A stretch of DNA of 64,000 nucleotides from NCBI GenBank assembly GCA_024229615.1, contig JAAESG010000001.1, positions 907 through 64,906 on the forward strand. Direction: 5' to 3'. A program made the position numbers and the translations under genes. Shown piece by piece: positions 3,335 to 55,732 of the stretch. The notes beneath the pieces were generated by a model, which was given only the letters and a program-made list of their open reading frames with translations, did no database searches and was not told where the DNA came from. This DNA is from Gammaproteobacteria bacterium. Its GTDB lineage: Bacteria; Pseudomonadota; Gammaproteobacteria; GCA-001735895. Position 1 is the first letter of the stretch, and each line of letters opens with the position of its first letter.

Positions 3335-4033
3335 TTGCTTCGTGTCATATTGTGGAAACTCGGTTCTGAGTGGGCGCAGATAAAAAGAATCCTGGCGCCG
3401 GGCACGGGCCGAAAAATATACTACTTCGCATTCGGTGCAAATCTCTGCCAGACGGTGCTGGATCTACGTCGGATTACGGTGTTCGAGGCATTTGACTTCG
3501 TGCTCGATGATGCAGTTCTGCGCTTTAGCCAATCCGGTTTCTACAAGGATCACGGCTATGCATCGGCCGATGCTGCTGGCGGAGAGGTGGTGTATGGCAG
3601 GATGTATCTGATACTGGAACGAGACGCGGAGCGCATGGACTACTACGAAGGGGTCCCTTTTCTTGGCGCGCATGAGAAAGTATTTCGCGAGGCGGATGAG
3701 TTTAAATACTTCTTTTATCGAGCCACCAGCATAAGCGATGGATTGAAACCCACCCGGGAGTACCTCGATTATCTGGTTACGGCCTATCGTCAGATGCCTA
3801 ATGTGCCGCAAACCTATACTGAGTCAATCGCGGCTACCGAGGTGCTCGAATACTTCATACCGTCGGATCAAACAGGAGAATTCGTCAAGGATCTTAATCG
3901 TTGGCCGTCTTTCATGCGCCCGCTATTGATTTACTACGAAGGGATTTGTCTAAGGCTGATCGAATTACTGTGGAACCGGTCGTTGTTCAAATGGATGATT
4001 AAAAGCTCGAACAAGGTTAACCCCGGCCATTAG
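3335..4033 (+). CDS. gamma-glutamyl cyclotransferase-like (AIG2/GGCT fold) protein; start uncertain (TTG at 3335)
   Basis: YYFAFGANL motif (family YFAYGSNL) and DYYEGVP...Y.R motif typical of GGCT-like proteins. Confidence 0.55.
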   Translation: MLRVILWKLGSEWAQIKRILAPGTGRKIYYFAFGANLCQTVLDLRRITVFEAFDFVLDDAVLRFSQSGFYKDHGYASADAAGGEVVYGRMYLILERDAERMDYYEGVPFLGAHEKVFREADEFKYFFYRATSISDGLKPTREYLDYLVTAYRQMPNVPQTYTESIAATEVLEYFIPSDQTGEFVKDLNRWPSFMRPLLIYYEGICLRLIELLWNRSLFKWMIKSSNKVNPGH

Positions 4034-5570: not shown

Positions 5571-5751
5571 TAGCCTGCATATTGCATCAGCATCACGGAT
5601 GCTGACGCCGGACAGATGCGGCTGAACGCCGGGCTAGGGTTCAGGCCGGTTATAAATTGCACAGTCTCATTTGGTAGGAAAACCATCGATTAATCTTTCA
5701 TATTCAATGGATTATGACAAGGCTTGAGACCGACTGGTGAAATATTCAGGC
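5571..5751. repeat. MITE-like element, family 1, copy 2 (TAGCCTGCATATTGCA ... TGAAATATTCAGGC)
   Basis: Terminal inverted repeats and internal sequence homologous to 564-823 and, in reverse complement, to 13018-13146. Sits between the convergent aspC-like and VOC genes. Confidence 0.6.
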
Positions 5752-5820
5752 TCGGTGCTATTGCCTGAAATTGCGATGAACGGGTCTGATGCCAGCAGTC
5801 AAGCCTGGAATTCCTCCGCC

Positions 5821-12046: not shown

Positions 12047-13018
12047 TTGAAGCCAGTACTGGTAGTACAAGGGGCGCAGCAGATAGCTGACGTACCTCGA
12101 CTCGAGGAAATAAACGATCAGGTTGAACTGCGTTTCGCGACCACGGAGGATGAATTACGTGGAGCCTTGCCCGGCGCCGAAGTATTGCTGGGTTGGAACT
12201 TTCGCGCCGGTCTGCGCGCCGCCTGGAATAGCGCCAATGATTTACGCTGGATCCATTGGGCTGGAGCCGGGGTTGACGCCGCACTGTTTCCCGAACTGGT
12301 CGAAAGTAAAGTTCTGCTGACCAACGCGCGGGGGGTGTTCGATGTCCCAATGGCCGAATGGGTGCTTGGCATGACGCTTTGTTTTGCCAAGAAATTCCCT
12401 CAAAGCCTCGCTTTCCAGGCACGGTCCGAGTGGAATCACCGGCTTTCGGAATGCATAGCTGGAAAGCGTGTGCTGGTAGTCGGGGTAGGATCGATCGGGC
12501 GTGCGGTCGGACGCCTGTTGCGTGAGGCGGGTATGCAGGTCGAAGCCGTCGGACGCAGTGCGCGTGATGGCGATGCGGATTTTGGCCACGTCTATGCCGT
12601 GGATGAACTGCACGCGCGCCTGCCGCTTGCCGACTATGTGGTATTGATAACACCGTTAACGCCCAAGACGCGTAATCTCTTTGCTGCGGCTGAATTTGCC
12701 GCGATGGCGACCCATGCCCGATTCATCAATATCGGACGCGGTGCGCTGGTCGTGGAGGATGCGTTACTCGCCGCCCTGCACAACGGAGACATCGCGGGTG
12801 CCGCCCTGGATGTCTTTGTGAATGAACCCCTGGCTGCGGACAGCCCTTTCTGGACAGCGCCGAATTGTCTGGTTTCGCCGCATATGTCAGGTGATTATGC
12901 CGAGTTCGAAGAGGCTATGGCTGATCAGTTCATGACGAATTGGAACCGGTACAGACAGGGTAAGGCGCTCAACAATATCGTCGATAAAAACCTGGGTTTT
13001 GTGACAGGTTCGAACTAG
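12047..13018 (+). CDS. D-isomer-specific 2-hydroxyacid dehydrogenase, NAD-binding
   Basis: GVGSIGRAVG Rossmann motif and catalytic R/E/H pattern of the family. TTG start; stop TAG overlaps the first base of the downstream MITE. Confidence 0.8.
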   Translation: MKPVLVVQGAQQIADVPRLEEINDQVELRFATTEDELRGALPGAEVLLGWNFRAGLRAAWNSANDLRWIHWAGAGVDAALFPELVESKVLLTNARGVFDVPMAEWVLGMTLCFAKKFPQSLAFQARSEWNHRLSECIAGKRVLVVGVGSIGRAVGRLLREAGMQVEAVGRSARDGDADFGHVYAVDELHARLPLADYVVLITPLTPKTRNLFAAAEFAAMATHARFINIGRGALVVEDALLAALHNGDIAGAALDVFVNEPLAADSPFWTAPNCLVSPHMSGDYAEFEEAMADQFMTNWNRYRQGKALNNIVDKNLGFVTGSN

Positions 13019-13146
13019 CCTGAATATATCACCAGTCGGTCTCAAGCCTTGTCATAATTCATTGAATATGAAAGATTAACTGAAGGTTTTTATGCTCAGC
13101 GAGACTGTGCAACTTGTGACCGGCCTGAGCCCTATCCTGGCGCCGG
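13018..13146. repeat. MITE-like element, family 1, copy 3 (partial, inverse orientation, lacks the second terminal inverted repeat)
   Basis: GCCTGAATATATCACCAGTCGGTCTCAAGCC... is the reverse complement of the 3' half of copy 2; similarity ends near 13146. Confidence 0.55.
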
Positions 13147-31501: not shown

Positions 31502-31641
31502 TGACTCCTGGTTTGTTATTTTCGGAAAGCTCTGTGTAAGTCATGACGACATTGCAGAGATTCCTCAGGTTTTAAGGAAAGGCGCAGTGTAATGCAACAA
31601 ACAGCCTCTTTGCCATTCGCCGGTCCACCTGTCGGCGTGGC

Positions 31642-33281: not shown

Positions 33282-34490
33282 TCAGTCCTCGACGAGGTGG
33301 CCGTAATGTTTGTAAAACAGACGCAGCCAGAAGGGTGTGAGCAGAGTTGTGTAGGCGATGACGATAACCACAGTGGCATAGATTTCGTGGTTGAACAGCC
33401 CGGTATGACGGCCAATCTCGGCGAATACCAGGCCGACCTCACCGCGTGGCACCATGGACATTCCGATGATGATACGACGCGCGAGTTTTTCTCGAATCAG
33501 CAATCCTGCGAGAACTTTGGAGAGGATCGCCACGCCGGCGAGGGTTACAGAAAATATCCAGAAAAAAACCGAACTCAAATCCAGCGAACTCAAATCCAGC
33601 GACAGCCCGACCGTGACAAAGAAAACGGGTGTGCACAGCTGAATCACCGGTTTCATCTGGTTGTGTACGCGAGATGAAAATTCCGGATCAGCTTTAAGCG
33701 CGACACCGAAAGGAAGAAAGAAGCGGCGCGACAGCGCGAGCCCAGTAGCAAAACCACCGAGCAATTGCGGAATCCCAATGGCATGCGACAACCAGGCCAT
33801 GAAAAGCACCAGCGATACGATTGTAGTCGGGACCATGCCGGGAGTTTCGCTGACCGACTCCCAGCGATTGATGACGTAACTGATCGTCTTCGCCATTGCC
33901 GGTGCGACCATGAAGAAAACTGCCATGAACAGCAGGATTTTCGAGGTGCCAATCAGGTCTACCGAGCCGCTGGTAATGAAATTGAACAGAATCGCCAGCA
34001 GCAGTACGCCCATGATATCGTCCAGTACTGCAGCGCCCAGGATGATGTGCCCCTCGTGGCTCTGGTCGCGGTCGAGGTCGGTCAGGGTTCGCATGGTAAT
34101 ACCGATACTGGTTGCGGTCATGGTTCCCGCAATGAGTAGCGAGACCAGGAATTCGAGCTCGAAGCCGTAATAGCTGATCGTGAAACAACTCGCAAACGGT
34201 AGTAAAAATCCTGCGATTGCAACGATGACAGATTTGGTCCCGGCGCTTGCGAGCTCACCGATATCGGTCTCCAGCCCGACTTCGAACAACAGCAGGATGA
34301 TGCCGATTTCAGCCAGCACCCAGATCAATCCATCGGCTTCGATGAAGCCTAGTAGTGACGGTCCCAGGATAACCCCGGCAATAATTTCACCGATCACCGT
34401 GGGTACTTTAATATAAGCCGCCAGTTCGCCCATGACGCGTGCGGCGATCAGGATCATCGCGACTTGCAAAATGGTCGTCGAAGTATCCAT
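33282..34490 (-). CDS. monovalent cation:proton antiporter (CPA family, Kef/NhaP-like)
   Basis: N-terminus MDTSTTILQVAMILIAARVMGELAAYIKVPTVIGEIIAGVILGPS typical of CPA antiporters; 12-13 TM helices. No Shine-Dalgarno sequence upstream. Confidence 0.8.
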   Translation of the reverse strand: MDTSTTILQVAMILIAARVMGELAAYIKVPTVIGEIIAGVILGPSLLGFIEADGLIWVLAEIGIILLLFEVGLETDIGELASAGTKSVIVAIAGFLLPFASCFTISYYGFELEFLVSLLIAGTMTATSIGITMRTLTDLDRDQSHEGHIILGAAVLDDIMGVLLLAILFNFITSGSVDLIGTSKILLFMAVFFMVAPAMAKTISYVINRWESVSETPGMVPTTIVSLVLFMAWLSHAIGIPQLLGGFATGLALSRRFFLPFGVALKADPEFSSRVHNQMKPVIQLCTPVFFVTVGLSLDLSSLDLSSVFFWIFSVTLAGVAILSKVLAGLLIREKLARRIIIGMSMVPRGEVGLVFAEIGRHTGLFNHEIYATVVIVIAYTTLLTPFWLRLFYKHYGHLVED

Positions 34491-34774
34491 TAGTGGTCAT
34501 TCAAGGTGATAATGACGGGTGCAGAGCGTTCCAGGTGCTGTGGGACAAGTGATGCGGCATCCCGACGCAGTCCGAAGGGAAGACCCAATGCATTCGCTGC
34601 GCTCATGGAGCCGGTCCTGGCATGCCCTTTCCAAGGATTGCAACGCTGTACCACGCCAACCAGGACGCTCCCTTCGGGCGGGCAGCAAAACGGCCATTCG
34701 CCGCGTTGCGTCTTTTGCCAAGGGATGGGCCATTGTCTGCAAGACGCGCCTTGCGACTGACTGCTTTGCTTCAT
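34490..34774 (-). CDS. candidate 94-codon upstream ORF translationally coupled to the antiporter (stop TAA overlaps the antiporter ATG as TAATG)
   Basis: GAGGGG Shine-Dalgarno sequence 6 nt before ATG (complement of 34772-34774). Protein MKQSSQSQGASCRQWPIPWQKTQRGEWPFCCPPEGS...VIITLNDH, Trp/Cys/Pro-rich, no recognised family. May be fortuitous within a repeat element. Confidence 0.3.
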   Translation of the reverse strand: MKQSSQSQGASCRQWPIPWQKTQRGEWPFCCPPEGSVLVGVVQRCNPWKGHARTGSMSAANALGLPFGLRRDAASLVPQHLERSAPVIITLNDH

Positions 34775-34809
34775 GCTGAACCCCTCATTATTACCTTGAA
34801 AGACCACTA
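34491..34809. repeat. 319-bp element bounded by a 26/30-nt imperfect terminal inverted repeat (TAGTGGTCATTCAAGGTGATAATGACGGG / CCCCTCATTATTACCTTGAAAGACCACTA)
   Basis: Inverted repeat seen directly. The element fills the entire gap between the antiporter start codon and the adjacent MITE. GC-rich interior with open frames on both strands. Confidence 0.55.
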
Positions 34810-34962
34810 GGGAAGCTCTGCATAAGTCATCCTGACTTAGCAGAGCACGAAAAACGCAAAATGCGATTTTTCGTTTTTCTTCATTTTTCAATCACTTGTG
34901 TGATCGAAAAATGGCGGCACATCCCTGTGCCGCAGGAATCTCTGCATTTTGCAGAGATTCCC
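34810..34962. repeat. MITE-like element, family 2, copy A (terminal inverted repeats GGGAAGCTCTGCA / TGCAGAGATTCCC, TA flanks); contains a nested perfect 27-nt palindrome GGAATCTCTGCATTTTGCAGAGATTCC
   Basis: Terminal inverted repeats read directly. About 85% identical to 54356-54428 over the shared 73 bp; the extra 90 bp is an internal insertion. Its last 3 bp (CTA) form the stop codon of the metallophosphoesterase gene. Confidence 0.6.
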
Positions 34963-35582
34963 TAGCTATACAGCATGCTGAAATTCCAGCATTTGACGAT
35001 ATTCTGGTTTCCGAGTGCGTATAGTTTCACGCTGAGGTCGGGTAGCGACAGTATCATACAGCTGTGATTGAAAACCGAACTTCCCGGGTTGACCACAAAA
35101 ACACCTCCGAGTTGTTCAGCATAGACCTGGTGGGTATGGCCGACAATCAGTACGTCGTAGTCAAAGTCGGACAGATTCTGGTGCCAGACATCTCTTTGTT
35201 GCTCGATAATCTGACCCTGCTGATCGAGCAGTTTTATACCGCCATGTTGTTCGCTGGGCGGGTTGGCGTGAACCACGAATACGCGCTTCTGCTCGATCGT
35301 CAAATCCAGTGTTTGCGGTAACGTCCGTAAGTAGTTGCGAGTCGACTGATCGCCTTCGAGTGAAGCCTTTTGCAGCCAGGATTGATCGTGGTTACCGACG
35401 ATTACCTGACAATTTGCCGAAGTCAGCAGTTCGATCGTCGGCAGCAGTGTGTCGTAGTAGCCGGCAATGTCACCCGCGCAGATAATTTCGTCGACGTTTT
35501 CTCGCCTGAAGATTTCAAGTGCCTGGCCGAGTGGGCCGGGGCTTGAATGTACGTCACTGATGAGTCCGACGGTGGTTGTCAT
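34962..35582 (-). CDS. metallophosphoesterase (YfcE-like calcineurin-fold phosphodiesterase)
   Basis: GLISDVH, GDIAGY, GNHD and HTH metal-binding motifs. Stop codon lies in the MITE terminus. Confidence 0.8.
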   Translation of the reverse strand: MTTTVGLISDVHSSPGPLGQALEIFRRENVDEIICAGDIAGYYDTLLPTIELLTSANCQVIVGNHDQSWLQKASLEGDQSTRNYLRTLPQTLDLTIEQKRVFVVHANPPSEQHGGIKLLDQQGQIIEQQRDVWHQNLSDFDYDVLIVGHTHQVYAEQLGGVFVVNPGSSVFNHSCMILSLPDLSVKLYALGNQNIVKCWNFSMLYS

Positions 35583-44687: not shown

Positions 44688-46012
44688 CAGGCGTTCAGTT
44701 CTTGCAGGGCGTTGTCAATCGCCATTAGCGCTGTATCGGCATCCGTTTGCGAGAATACCAGCGGCGGCCGTAGCTTCAGTATCTGATCATAGCGACCCGA
44801 AGTGCCGGTAATGACGCCCTGCTCGACGATGAGACTGCCCAGGTGGCGCATTTGCTGCTCGGAAAGTGGTTCCCTGGTATCGGGGTCGGATACCATGTCG
44901 AGCCCCCAGAACAAACCACAACCCTGGACATCCCCGATCAGCGGGTGGCGTTCAGCGAGCTTACGCAATCCGGCCTCGAGATAGGCGCCGGTTTCCTGGG
45001 CGTTCTGCAATAACCCATCGTTGTCGATGACCTCGATGACCGCTTTGCCGACGGCGGCCGAAACCGGGTTACCGCCGAAGGTGTTGAAGTAATGGTACTG
45101 ACGCGAGTAATTGTTGGCGATCTCTCGGCTCGTGGCCATCAATGAAAGTGGGTGTCCAGCGCCCATGGGTTTGCCGCAGGTCAGGATATCGGGCTGCAAA
45201 GCGTAGAAATCACTGCGCCACCAGTTTTGACCGCTGCGGCAATAACCGGACTGAACTTCGTCAGCAATCACCAATCCCCCGCGCTTGCGGATTTCGGCGC
45301 AAAGCCCGAGCACATAATCGGATGGTGGTGACAGGGGACCATTGGAGTCCCAAACCAGATCGATCATTACCGCCGCTGGTTTATATCCTCGCTGCTCAAG
45401 CCCGTCGAGCGCCCGCCGGGCCAGTTGCAGATATTTTTCTCCGGCCTTGGGATCGTCGCGATGATAGGGCCCGCGATATAGGTTGGGCGGTTCGATCACG
45501 GCCAGCCAGTCGGGGCGATGCTCGGGAGGATAACTGTGTGTCGACAGGCGTCGAGTCAGTTCGGAAACACCGTGATAAGAGGCTTCGGTGACGACTATGC
45601 CCTGGTTGCCAGTGACGTGACGCGCAATTTGCGTGGCCAGGTCGTTGGCTTCACTACCGGTACAGGTAAACACACAGCAATCAATATCGCCGGGCATTTT
45701 ATCGACCAGCATTTCTCCCAGTTCGACGATACCGGCATGCAGATAGCGGGTATGGGTGTTGAGCGTGGCTGCCTGCTTGCAGAGCGCATCGACGACATGG
45801 GGATGGCAATGTCCGACCGAAACCACATTGTTGTAGCAATCCAGATACTGGCGCCCTGCCGCGTCCCACAATCGAGTACCCGAGCCGCGTACCAGGTGGA
45901 GTGGTTCATCGAAAAAGTTTTGATAGGTGGGGGCGAGGGTCGCCTTACGCCGAGCAATCAGTTGCTGATCATGCATGTTATGTACTTTACGGGCTGAATC
46001 CGTCAATTTCAC
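44687..46012 (-). CDS. class III PLP-dependent aminotransferase
   Basis: DEVQSG...R.G and PLP-lysine TCGKPMG motifs; 441 aa. Confidence 0.85.
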
Positions 46013-46024
46013 TTTGAAAGAACA

Positions 46025-46912
46025 CTAGGATTCAATTTTAATTTTGGTATCGCCACCTAGCACCGGTTTACTCAGATGGATAGACATGCCTTCCGCCGCA
46101 CAGACGCTACGCGTGGGTGCTCGATGGGATTTAAGGTATTTCTCGTTTTCGATCTGAATTTCATCGAGTTCGGAATCGCTGCGATCAGGGTCGTGGTGAA
46201 ACATGACCAGGGTGCCTACCTCGGCATCACTGGCCAGTTGTCGAACCTGTGAAATCAAGCTATGCCCCCATCCGTGCTTGTGTGGCATGTCGTCTTCGAC
46301 GTACTGGGCGTCGTGAATCAGTACGTCGACACCCTGCAGGTAATTGACCCACTGGTCATAGTTGGTGCTCTGAGCATAGGGTGGGTCGAGCTCGTTGTCG
46401 GTAACATAGGCGCAAGTGACGCCGTTTTCATTGATCATGTAAGCAACGCCACCGCCAGGATGATTGAGTGCCTGCTTGGCCACCTTGATACCTTCGCGTT
46501 CATACATCTCACTTTCGATCCCCTTGAATTTCGGAATGTTGTTCGATGGCAGATCCTCAACTTTTACCGGGAAGTGAGTGCCATCCATTTGCCGGAACAG
46601 CGTATTGAATAGCTTGCGTCCGGACTCCATGCTGATATAGACATTGATATCGCGGCCGGTTTGATAAATAGGTGCGAAAAACGGGTAACCCTGGATATGA
46701 TCCCAGTGACCGTGTGATAGCAGGATATTGACGTGTGTCGATTTCTTCGCGAGTTTGTTGCCGAGCATGCGAATGCCGGTTCCGGCATCGAGGATCAGAT
46801 CATTGCCGCTTTCGAGTTCGATATGAACGCAGGAAGTGTTACCACCGTATTTTACGGTCTGTGGCCCGGGTACCGAGGTAGAACCACGCACGCCATAAAA
46901 TGTGATGATCAC
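46025..46912 (-). CDS. MBL-fold metallo-hydrolase
   Basis: HGHWDH zinc-binding motif. Confidence 0.8.
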   Translation of the reverse strand: MIITFYGVRGSTSVPGPQTVKYGGNTSCVHIELESGNDLILDAGTGIRMLGNKLAKKSTHVNILLSHGHWDHIQGYPFFAPIYQTGRDINVYISMESGRKLFNTLFRQMDGTHFPVKVEDLPSNNIPKFKGIESEMYEREGIKVAKQALNHPGGGVAYMINENGVTCAYVTDNELDPPYAQSTNYDQWVNYLQGVDVLIHDAQYVEDDMPHKHGWGHSLISQVRQLASDAEVGTLVMFHHDPDRSDSELDEIQIENEKYLKSHRAPTRSVCAAEGMSIHLSKPVLGGDTKIKIES

Positions 46913-47884: not shown

Positions 47885-47993
47885 AGCGTCGATTATAGAG
47901 AGCAGCGACTATCACGGTAACTATTTTATTTCTACCTCAGCATGGCTTTAACATTCCGCGCTGTTGGGCTGCAGTTCCCGGTGCCAATATCCT

Positions 47994-48160
47994 CTAGCCC
48001 GCATTTCTCACCAGGATGGCGGGCCCTCGCTTGTTCTTTGAACTCACAAGGGATTTTCTTCAGGCGGGTTACGCTCTGTTATTCCGCTCCTTCAGAAAAC
48101 CCCTTGTGAATCCAAAGCCCTGCGCGATCATCCTGCCCCCTGGTGAGAAATGCGGGCTAG
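47994..48160. repeat. 167-bp nested inverted-repeat (hairpin) element: 22-bp perfect terminal inverted repeats CTAGCCCGCATTTCTCACCAGG / CCTGGTGAGAAATGCGGGCTAG plus an inner ~25-bp inverted repeat
   Basis: Seen directly. Located in the divergent promoter region between the DMT transporter and the aldehyde dehydrogenase. Confidence 0.6.
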
Positions 48161-48275
48161 ATGGTGTTGGAAGCACAGAATTTGCCCCAATATTGAAAAA
48201 AGCCTTGCAGATGAATCCGCTTCACGGCACATTTCGCATTCCATAACTTAATCGATTTACCAGGAAATCAAGCAG

Positions 48276-54239: not shown

Positions 54240-54355
54240 ACTAGTCAGCAAATTGGGACTTATTGTCTGCCGGTTTCTGACTGGCCAGACTTGCATCGGT
54301 CTGTCCGCCTTTGGTAAAACCGACACTCGGGATTACTTCTGTATCTACATATTTA

Positions 54356-54428
54356 AGGAATCTCTGCAAGATCGTATTTTGTGTTTTTCTTGCTCTGCTG
54401 GGTCAGCACGACTTATGTAGAGCTTTCC
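54356..54428. repeat. MITE-like element, family 2, copy B (73 bp; terminal inverted repeats AGGAATCTCTGCA / TGTAGAGCTTTCC, TA flanks)
   Basis: About 85% identical to the outer parts of 34810-34962. Its last base is the first base of the dctM-family stop codon (CTA on the plus strand). Confidence 0.55.
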
Positions 54429-55732
54429 TAAGATGTCATAAGAGTCGGCAGATAAAGTGCTATGGCGGGGTAGGCCGTTATCAACACAATAGCGACGGCA
54501 ATCATGAAAAAGAACGGTAGTGCGGCCTTGGCAACATAAATAATATTTTTACCGGTCAGGGATTGAATCACAAAAAGATTGAATCCGACCGGTGGGGTAA
54601 TTTGCGACATTTCAACCACCAGTACGAGAAAGATACCGAACCAGATGGTATCGATCCCGGCCTGTGTCACCATCGGCAATACCACGGAAGTCGTCAGAAC
54701 GATGACAGATATACCATCGAGAAAACAGCCCAGCGCAATAAAAAATACCGTCAAGCACATGATTAGCTGAATCGGCGATAGGCCGAGTGACGCGATCCAC
54801 TCGGCGAGTGCGTTAGGAATGCCGATAAAACCCATCGCCAGGGTTAAGAAGTGCGCGCCCACTAGAATTAATCCAAGCATGCATGAATTTTTCACCGCGC
54901 CGGTCACGCTACTGACAAAACTGGAAAAGGCGAAGCTGCCCAGTAGCATGGATAAAACCAGCGCTCCGATTACCCCGAATGCCGCGGCTTCGGTGGGCGT
55001 CGCGATGCCCTGATAAATTGAACCCAGCACGCCACCAATCAAAAACATGATCGGAATCAGTTTTTTAAACGCGATTATCTTTTCAGCGAATGAATAGCTG
55101 ATGTCGTCAACGACGCCACCGGATTTACCTTTTATGATCGACCATACGACGGTGTAGCACATGAATAAAAGAATCAGAATCAAGCCAGGCAAAGCCCCGG
55201 CCAGAAATAAACGCGCGATTGAAACTTCGGCGGCAACACCGTAAATAATCAGGATGATCGACGGTGGAATGAGCAGGCCCAAAGTCCCTGAGCCAGCCAG
55301 GGTTCCGATTGCCATCGAGTCATCGTAGCCTCGCTTTGACAGTTCAGGTAATGTCATGCGCCCAATGGTAGCTGCGGTTGCCGCGGATGAGCCCGAGACC
55401 GCGGCAAAGATACCGCAACTCAGAATATTGACGTGTAACAATTTACCGGGAAGTTTTGACAGGGTCGGGGACAGACCTTCAAACAGGTCTTGTGATAAAC
55501 GCGTGCGAAACAGGATTTCGCCCATCCAGATAAATAGTGGCAGTGCGGTGAGTGACCAACCTGTGGTTGCACTCCACGACGAGGTGCCGAGCAATAAACC
55601 GATGCTGCCATTATCGATTAACTTAAGCCCAACGATTGCGAGCCCGGTTAGTGTCAAAGCGACCCAGATGCCGCTGGTTAACATCAGGAACATGCAAACG
55701 ACCAGGATTCCGCCAATCAATGTCATATCCAT
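54428..55732 (-). CDS. TRAP transporter large permease (DctM family)
   Basis: 434 aa, about 12 TM helices, DctM-family signature segments. Confidence 0.9.
   Translation of the reverse strand: MDMTLIGGILVVCMFLMLTSGIWVALTLTGLAIVGLKLIDNGSIGLLLGTSSWSATTGWSLTALPLFIWMGEILFRTRLSQDLFEGLSPTLSKLPGKLLHVNILSCGIFAAVSGSSAATAATIGRMTLPELSKRGYDDSMAIGTLAGSGTLGLLIPPSIILIIYGVAAEVSIARLFLAGALPGLILILLFMCYTVVWSIIKGKSGGVVDDISYSFAEKIIAFKKLIPIMFLIGGVLGSIYQGIATPTEAAAFGVIGALVLSMLLGSFAFSSFVSSVTGAVKNSCMLGLILVGAHFLTLAMGFIGIPNALAEWIASLGLSPIQLIMCLTVFFIALGCFLDGISVIVLTTSVVLPMVTQAGIDTIWFGIFLVLVVEMSQITPPVGFNLFVIQSLTGKNIIYVAKAALPFFFMIAVAIVLITAYPAIALYLPTLMTS

Follow-up and report, generated by a model that had tools for sequence, protein, structure and literature searches.

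Whether a gene may owe its stop codon, and its product a new C-terminus, to a small mobile element is the question raised by a locus in a 64-kb stretch of gammaproteobacterial DNA (the window, i.e. the whole stretch analysed). There, a non-coding sequence with inverted-repeat ends occupies part of the gap between a metallophosphoesterase gene and a Na+/H+ exchanger gene. It had been described, from its letters alone, as a MITE (miniature inverted-repeat transposable element) of 153 bp, located at positions 34810-34962, flanked by TA in keeping with a target-site duplication, and supplying the stop codon of the phosphoesterase gene. The analysis reported here indicates that the element, 151 bp in size, is very probably a non-coding MITE served in trans by a transposase of the IS5 family, and that it sits on the stop codon by way of a 4-bp target duplication. 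This reading is carried by the anatomy of the element, its family of copies, their duplications, the empty sites and IS5-family partners with matching ends, all of which were directly observed.

Ends of the element and target-site duplication

The features which define the element are the following:

34807-34810, unstranded: left copy of the target-site duplication, CTAG, identical to 34962-34965
34811-34961, plus strand: MITE proper (GGAAGCTCTGCA...TGCAGAGATTCC), non-coding, with five consecutive hairpins
34811-34822, plus strand: left terminal inverted repeat GGAAGCTCTGCA, with similarity running on to TAAGTC (34811-34828)
34962-34965, unstranded: right copy of the target-site duplication, CTAG, in which 34962-34964 is the phosphoesterase TAG stop on the minus strand

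The terminal repeats GGAAGCTCTGCA and TGCAGAGATTCC, the latter at 34950-34961, are complementary at 11 of 12 positions, or over 19 nucleotides (nt) at 89% when the duplication is included; in motif form, the ends of the family are GGAASCTCTGCA...TGCAGAGSTTCC. As first described, the element ran from GGGAAGCTCTGCA, which begins at 34810, to TGCAGAGATTCCC, which finishes at 34962, with TA outside both. Repeats and TA flanks are present, but the outermost G and C were assigned to the duplication, because in other copies both vary together with the flank, and the MITE proper is one base shorter at each end. It is smaller than about 500 bp and is crossed only by chance open reading frames, none of which has a Pfam match. 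The 12-mer GGRAWYTCTGCA, searched with at most one mismatch, occurs 8 times in the window, versus 2.4 +/- 1.5 times in shuffled sequences, and none of 100 shuffles reached 8.

Identical 4-bp flanks were found in 29 elements, from the window, the Olavius algarvensis Gamma 3 symbiont and marine metagenomes. Aligned flanks read CTAG...CTAG in the window, L061 and L009, TTAG...TTAG in L042a and L095, and TTAA...TTAA in L042b. Since the base outside each TA covaries on both sides, the duplication is 4 bp long, instead of the TA originally proposed, and the element spans 34811-34961. All perfect duplications but one (28/29) are CTAG, TTAG, TTAA or CTAA, the remaining one being TTTA. Judged from these flanks, the duplicated target of the family is pyrimidine-T-A-purine (Py-T-A-Pu), as for IS5.

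The stop codon and the empty sites

Two genes border the gap, and a third ends at a shorter copy of the element:

34962-35582, minus strand: YfcE-family metallophosphoesterase gene, 206 amino acids (aa), matching NCBIfam TIGR00040 and Pfam Metallophos_2; its stop codon is the insertion target
33282-34490, minus strand: Na+/H+ exchanger gene, from the Pfam Na_H_Exchanger annotation of orthologous genes
54357-54427, minus strand: internal-deletion derivative of the element, 71 bp, flanked by TTAA (54353-54356) and CTAA (54428-54431)

The TAG stop of the phosphoesterase gene lies at 34962-34964 (CTA on the plus strand), entirely within the right CTAG copy. The original prediction had it as the element's three final bases; of these, the interval then proposed includes 34962 alone, and all three belong to the duplication. 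This position indicates that the stop codon is a pre-existing target remade by the duplication, not a sequence brought by the element, and that the protein is left unchanged.

The claim that the insertion defines the C-terminus is contradicted by element-free homologues. Among the 120 best phosphoesterase homologues listed, with 68-78% identity, the majority have a length of 206 aa, and 5 of 18 aligned homologues end in ...CWNFSMLYS, as the window protein does. The comparison with orthologous loci proposed in the original prediction revealed empty sites for both the 151-bp and the 71-bp copies. In seven syntenic loci the genes follow one another as S-methyltransferase, hypothetical, phosphoesterase, Na+/H+ exchanger, decarboxylase, and the phosphoesterase stop is in every case followed by 3 nt and the exchanger ATG (for example TATAGT TAG GGC ATGGATACT), where the window has 471 bp. 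The 71-bp copy behaves in the same way: the TAG stop of the DctM gene (54428-54430) is contained within its flank tetranucleotide, and a precise empty site is found in L166/L167, the closest DctM relatives (97% aa, 88% nt), where ...ACGTCT TAG is directly followed by ATATCGTGTAGAT; the window reads ...ACATCT TAG, the 71 bp, TTAA and then ATATGTAGAT. In the list of the 120 best DctM homologues, most measure 434 aa. From these comparisons, the phosphoesterase and DctM proteins are both full-length, with ancestral C-termini.

Stop codons are a recurrent location for the family. At 10 of 58 element ends, the duplicated TAA or TAG is exactly where an open frame of 200 codons or more terminates, with 0 and 0 in the two control frames; when frames of at least 100 codons are considered, 12 of the 29 elements (41%) have one or both ends at a stop codon. 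In a crude open reading frame model of the window, about 22% of the non-disruptive Py-T-A-Pu sites are stop-codon sites. The excess of 41% over about 22% is mild, active homing to stop codons is not claimed, and passive target choice combined with purifying selection can largely explain it. Elements targeting Py-T-A-Pu can land exactly on TAA or TAG stops with the reading frame intact; a claim that a MITE has donated a stop codon and changed a C-terminus therefore calls for prior inspection of the duplication. The use of the finding lies mainly in correct annotation, together with a clean example of a harmless stop-codon insertion.

One phosphoesterase homologue, P0035, is 218 aa long and carries a 12-residue extension (EHEGGTLNLIKQ) past the conserved ...MLYS end, a possible sign that, in another genome, the stop codon at this site has been disrupted.

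Copies and distribution of the family

The notion of a multi-copy MITE family with terminal inverted repeats is borne out by three copies in the window and many in other genomes and metagenomes. A relative at 54356-54428, 73 bp in the original prediction, is real (85% identity over 60 nt, E = 3.5e-8, opposite orientation), but the element itself is the 71-bp sequence listed above. The third copy, missed at first reading, is placed between the EamA and decarboxylase genes:

31525-31564, plus strand: minimal derivative, 40 bp, hairpin 1 joined to the right terminal repeat, with decayed flanks (TTCG / TCAG)

In L162, a 40-bp copy of the same kind shows a perfect TTAA duplication; other short derivatives, of 64-96 bp, occur in L133 and L153. 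Recombination or deletion between repeated GCAGAG motifs accounts for the short forms (40, 64-96 and 71 bp).

A scan for the left-end motif, limited to one genome per species, detected at least 114 loci. Among them, at least five full-length copies, about 86-91% identical, belong to the Olavius algarvensis Gamma 3 endosymbiont (L009, L042 with two copies, L061, L095), and the window MITE is about 91% identical to copies from this symbiont along its whole length. One further copy was found in an unclassified metagenome-assembled genome (MAG; L073), and a Terriglobia chromosome (L112) holds a copy 76% identical, of the same architecture. Scanning metagenomes with a longer left-end motif added 44 loci, mostly 151-bp copies. 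Altogether 22 additional distinct copies of 148-152 bp were collected from genomes and metagenomes. The copies in the window (3), in the symbiont (at least 5) and in the metagenomes (44 loci) occupy unrelated sites. BLASTN in distant mode against 72,556 plasmids gave no match to the 151-bp element.

In four metagenome loci (L128, L134, L135, L149) variants of 178-200 bp carry extra palindromic modules within hairpin 1 or 4, with TTAA or TTAG duplications which are still perfect; the family therefore evolves through gain and loss of hairpin modules.

Insertion sequences sharing the ends of the element

Full-length insertion sequences of the IS5 family, 1.15-1.18 kb in size, bear the same ends and the same duplications as the MITE. 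One of them, 1178 bp long, lies in a Solirubrobacteraceae MAG (L093); it runs from GGAAGCTCTGCGTAAGTC to TGCAGAGCTTCC, is flanked by a CTAG duplication and contains a single open reading frame of 323 aa. It equals the MITE left end at 17 of 18 bases, and its end is the same 18-19 nt sequence as the MITE left repeat, found also in many Burkholderiales repeats. The other, 1150 bp long with a TTAA duplication, is located in a metagenome contig (L163), 270 bp away from a 151-bp MITE copy also duplicating TTAA; its left end GGAACCTCTGCAAAAGGC and the right end of this MITE copy agree in 15 of 15 terminal bases, and in 17 of 18 overall. Both transposases match the NCBIfam model NF033581 'IS5 family transposase', with 325.7 and 347.2 bits against a cut-off of 140 bits, and the L093 protein contains the Pfam domains DUF772 and DDE_Tnp_1. 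The search for a cognate transposase, proposed in the original prediction, was thus productive in these two sequences.

In the mechanism envisaged, a transposase of the IS5 family (IS5-group DDE) would act in trans on the MITE, recognising the 12-18-nt terminal inverted repeats GGAASCTCTGCA(TAAGTC). A Py-T-A-Pu tetranucleotide would be cut with a 4-nt stagger, the element inserted, and the tetranucleotide duplicated by repair.

The same end, nearly always after YTA, bounds many repeats in Burkholderiales MAGs. Among these repeats, a 281-bp MITE in Burkholderiales and other Pseudomonadota MAGs (L024, L035, L055, L083, L091) shares the terminal 19 nt (GGGAAGCTCTGCATAAGTC) and is flanked by CTAG duplications, with a GC-rich interior completely different from that of the 151-bp MITE. 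Breaks of many MAG contigs some 100-140 bp inside it imply that its copies are numerous. In L163, a different repeat, of about 55 nt (GGGACAGTATACCTATCTC...GGCGGATATCGATAATTAA), occurs twice on the minus strand, at 3398-3470 and 3821-3890; a TTAA at its end is the site of the MITE copy in one case and of the full-length IS5-family element in the other, a sign that yet another repeat family may contain a hot spot of insertion.

Hairpins and internal structure

The MITE is predicted to fold into five consecutive hairpins, at -87 kcal/mol versus -37 +/- 4 kcal/mol for shuffled sequences (z = -12.7). They are listed below, together with the evidence for each:

34815-34846, unstranded: hairpin 1, left repeat against its own inverted copy further inside; 98% of cells paired in helix 1
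34849-34879, unstranded: hairpin 2, GAAAAACGCAAAAT-GCG-ATTTTTCGTTTTTC; compensatory double changes in 5 of 13 pairs among 24 copies
34882-34913, unstranded: hairpin 3, CATTTTTCAATCAC-ttgt-GTGATCGAAAAATG; inverted-repeat pair, helix 3
34904-34933, minus strand: hairpin 4 (GCGGCACAGGGATGTGCCGC) followed by CATTTTTCGA; pattern scan, stem conserved (helix 4)
34935-34961, unstranded: hairpin 5, the 27-nt palindrome GGAATCTCTGCA-TTT-TGCAGAGATTCC; right terminal repeat and its internal inverted copy

The internal hairpin with a 14-pair stem and a tcc loop, already noticed at first reading, was recovered as hairpin 1, made of GCTCTGCATAAGTCA (34815-34829) and TGACTTAGCAGAGC (34833-34846), with one bulged A. 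The 27-nt palindrome is likewise present and consists of two terminal-repeat sequences, as stated in the original prediction. It is not a footprint of excision and re-insertion: hairpin 5 is found in all full-length copies and covaries, with C-G in 11 sequences and U-A in 8.

Conservation of the fold was evaluated on an alignment of 24 distinct copies. Pairing is kept in 95.5% of the cells, compared with 40-47% in slid controls, and double, compensatory changes occur at 11 pairs, versus 5.5 +/- 1.2 after shuffling, with none of 500 shuffles reaching 11. Wobble-type mismatches are balanced, 20 of them being of G-U type (plus strand) and 18 of A-C type (G-U on the minus strand). A conserved structure read on a single RNA strand is not supported by this balance; the constraint is therefore strand-neutral, and fits palindromes at the DNA level, or use of both strands, better than a single structured RNA. 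Most likely, the role of the five palindromes lies at the DNA level or is symmetrical; they could be binding sites for the transposase or host factors, or fold-back structures. A search of the window against Rfam 15 gave no match at the gathering score; permissive settings returned only chance-level hits to isrK and RsmV (E = 0.1-0.2).

On the minus strand, 34933-34914 combines 8 pairs (6 of them GC) with the following CATTTTTCGA, in the pattern of an intrinsic terminator about 30 nt downstream of the phosphoesterase stop. The scan found 2 such sites in the region against 1.1 expected, and they are pattern matches only; no promoter-like site was detected in the spacer. Hairpin 4 and its T-run are a possible terminator-like signal behind the phosphoesterase gene, with a putative effect on transcription. 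The phosphoesterase and exchanger genes are adjacent and probably co-transcribed in relatives, and the insertions may have uncoupled them through the predicted hairpin.

A broader proposal, which is doubtful, takes the palindromes for required parts of a 'fold-back' design, in which pairing of either terminal repeat with its internal inverted copy would provide four transposase-binding sites or hairpinned ends, and the Py-T-A-Pu preference for a 'safe harbour' at stop codons. If this is true, the remade TAA or TAG would let the element sit flush with genes, even in a 3-nt gap, harmlessly, and the design would explain the spread of the MITE in Gammaproteobacteria and Terriglobia, and of the same ends in Burkholderiales and Actinomycetota.

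Alternative explanations

Several points weigh against an IS5-dependent MITE. Mobilisation in trans is deduced from sequence likeness; tblastn detected no IS5-family transposase within the 64-kb window, and a partner in the source genome itself is therefore putative, coverage being of the window alone. Derivation of the MITE interior by internal deletion of the co-resident L163 insertion sequence was considered and discarded: only the terminal 15-18 nt or so match, while the interiors are unrelated, and the MITE therefore shares only its ends with the presumed mobiliser. The empty sites come from other species (phosphoesterase 70-78% aa, DctM 97% aa), not from strains of the same species. In addition, the flanks of both shorter window copies are imperfect or decayed (TTAA/CTAA; TTCG/TCAG), and the family may therefore be old and inactive in the source genome.

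The alternatives fare worse. In the original account, a Correia- or IS630/mariner-like MITE of 153 bp duplicates TA, supplies the stop codon and a new C-terminus, and preserves in its palindrome a footprint of excision and re-insertion. TA is found on both sides of 34810-34962, the stop codon does adjoin the element and the palindrome does comprise two terminal-repeat sequences; yet this account is very improbable, because the base outside each TA covaries across 29 copies, the stop lies entirely in the duplicated target, element-free homologues share length and final residues with the window protein, the palindrome is present and covarying in every full-length copy, and the autonomous relatives belong to the IS5 family, not to IS630. 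That no mobile family exists, and the copies result from local duplication or chance, is next to inconceivable. The window holds only three copies, two of them short, as would be expected in that case, but dozens more lie at unrelated loci elsewhere, each with its own 4-bp duplication, precise empty sites exist, and the motif count is above all shuffles. The original prediction had stated that only two copies and a lack of empty sites would speak for such a local duplication; many copies and empty sites were found.

More serious, and still unlikely, is a host-functional structured module resembling a MITE, conserved by selection as a bidirectional terminator or insulator, as mRNA-stabilising stem-loops or as a set of protein-binding palindromes. 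It would account for the compensatory changes which keep the five hairpins, for the terminator-like GC stem and T-run directly behind the gene on the minus strand, and for an architecture kept as far as the Terriglobia copy (L112, 76% identity); moreover, MITEs with terminator-like modules are known, such as SPRITE (PMC10969869). Against it, orientation shows no preference, genes hit at their stop entering from the right end in 6 cases and from the left in 3 (close family members), wobble-type mismatches have no strand bias, no Rfam family matches, and the terminator look is confined to one hairpin of five, on one strand. Perfect duplications, empty sites and deletion derivatives rather indicate mobility behind the copies.

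The adjoining element and the order of insertions

The rest of the phosphoesterase-exchanger gap is occupied by a second element, which directly adjoins the 151-bp MITE and went unmentioned in the original prediction:

34491-34809, unstranded: second, unrelated MITE ('MITE-B'), about 319 bp, with 34-nt terminal repeats TAGTGGTCATTCAAGGTGATAATGACGGGTGCAG, 88% complementary

MITE-B is absent from all seven orthologous loci, and no other full copy was found in the sequences examined. A solo 37-nt stretch at 45993-46029, 81% identical to its terminal repeat, is probably the remnant of another copy. The 151-bp MITE plus its duplication contributes 155 of the 471 extra bp. When both elements and their duplications are taken out, TATAGC TAATG GAT remains, in which stop and start overlap. 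With respect to annotation, the 471-bp spacer that separates the phosphoesterase gene from the Na+/H+ exchanger gene is a stack of two MITEs rather than regulatory sequence or small genes.

MITE-B was probably the first to insert. It would have entered at the TA of TAATG, where its first base, G, would have changed TAA to TAG and made a CTAG; the IS5-type MITE would then have struck that CTAG, which held the phosphoesterase TAG stop, and duplication of CTAG would have restored the stop and left the protein unchanged. The reverse order predicts ...TAG, the original spacer and ATG after MITE-B; the right junction observed, ...GACCACTA ATG, is unlike this prediction, and insertion of MITE-B first is therefore simpler. 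We infer this order with the reservation that the MITE-B duplication (TA, or CTAG/CTAA) is indefinable from a single copy.

Comparison with known elements

The terminal repeat of E. coli IS5 is GGAAGGTGCGAACAAGTCC, to be compared with GGAAGCTCTGCATAAGTC(A/C) in the window element. IS5 duplicates a Py-T-A-Pu tetranucleotide, CTAG being the commonest (PMC5493358), and the IS5 group has in common with the window element the terminal repeat type, the Py-T-A-Pu target and the 4-bp duplication. The related elements of L093 and L163 encode transposases with DUF772 and DDE_Tnp_1 domains, which match NF033581. In contrast, the window element is without a transposase gene and about 8 times shorter, and only its terminal 12-18 nt are common with the full-length elements found.

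The closest described analogue is MITEPsy1 of Pseudomonas syringae pv. phaseolicola, a 100-nt element with the repeat GGAAGGTCTG... and a 4-nt duplication at CTAG/YTAA (PMC3189936); it is thought to derive from ISPsy2, of the IS5 family, and has been trapped transposing experimentally (PMC3189936). Both elements are small and non-coding, with terminal inverted repeats, which begin with GGAAGGTCTG in MITEPsy1 and GGAAGCTCTG in the window (9/10); both make a 4-nt duplication at CTAG/YTAA and would use an IS5-family transposase in trans, as presumed for the window element. The mechanism class is thus common to them, whereas sequence, size and five-hairpin interior are not: MITEPsy1 measures 100 nt instead of 151, its internal sequence is unrelated, and neither a five-hairpin interior nor a terminal-repeat fold-back is described for it, both being present in the window MITE. 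Host range also differs, the window family being found in Gammaproteobacteria of marine sediment or symbiotic with gutless worms; finally, MITEPsy1 was trapped experimentally, while the window element is known from sequence.

Correia elements of Neisseria and ERIC elements of enterobacteria resemble the window element in size (about 100-160 bp), inverted-repeat ends and strongly folding transcripts, as well as in lying often at gene ends, where they may affect the termination or stability of transcripts. Both duplicate TA, and neither is known to have a partner transposase. The window family differs in its 4-bp Py-T-A-Pu duplication and in having IS5-family partners with matching ends, and shares no sequence similarity with them.

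Structured MITEs, terminator-like modules and MITEs stacked on each other have been documented (review PMC10969869). Among them, SPRITE, BOX and RUP of Streptococcus pneumoniae are MITE-like repeats with terminator-like stem-loops (PMC10969869), which pile up in intergenic regions, adjoining or nested, like the two abutting MITEs at 34491-34965; hosts, sequences and transposase families are different.

A search of the accessible literature for the terminal-repeat string yielded unrelated primer matches only. The 151-bp MITE adds an apparently undescribed, IS5-dependent family, hosted by marine sediment and gutless-worm-symbiont Gammaproteobacteria. The family is unusually clear in its duplications, empty sites, deletion derivatives and co-resident candidate partner insertion sequence.

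Other repeats in the window

Another repeat family has three copies, at about 564-830, 5571-5752 and 13009-13143. Its ends are CTAGCCTGCATATTGCA... and ...GAAATATTCAGGCTAG, also bounded by CTAG, and it is probably another MITE family; 126-nt arms at 5627-5752 and 13017-13142 are 86% complementary to each other. A further MITE-like candidate, 187 bp in size, is located at 47984-48170, with 32-nt inverted-repeat arms 91% complementary (CCAATATCCTCTAGCCCGCATTTCTCACCAGG...); with this additional element, the window is therefore rich in small inverted-repeat elements.

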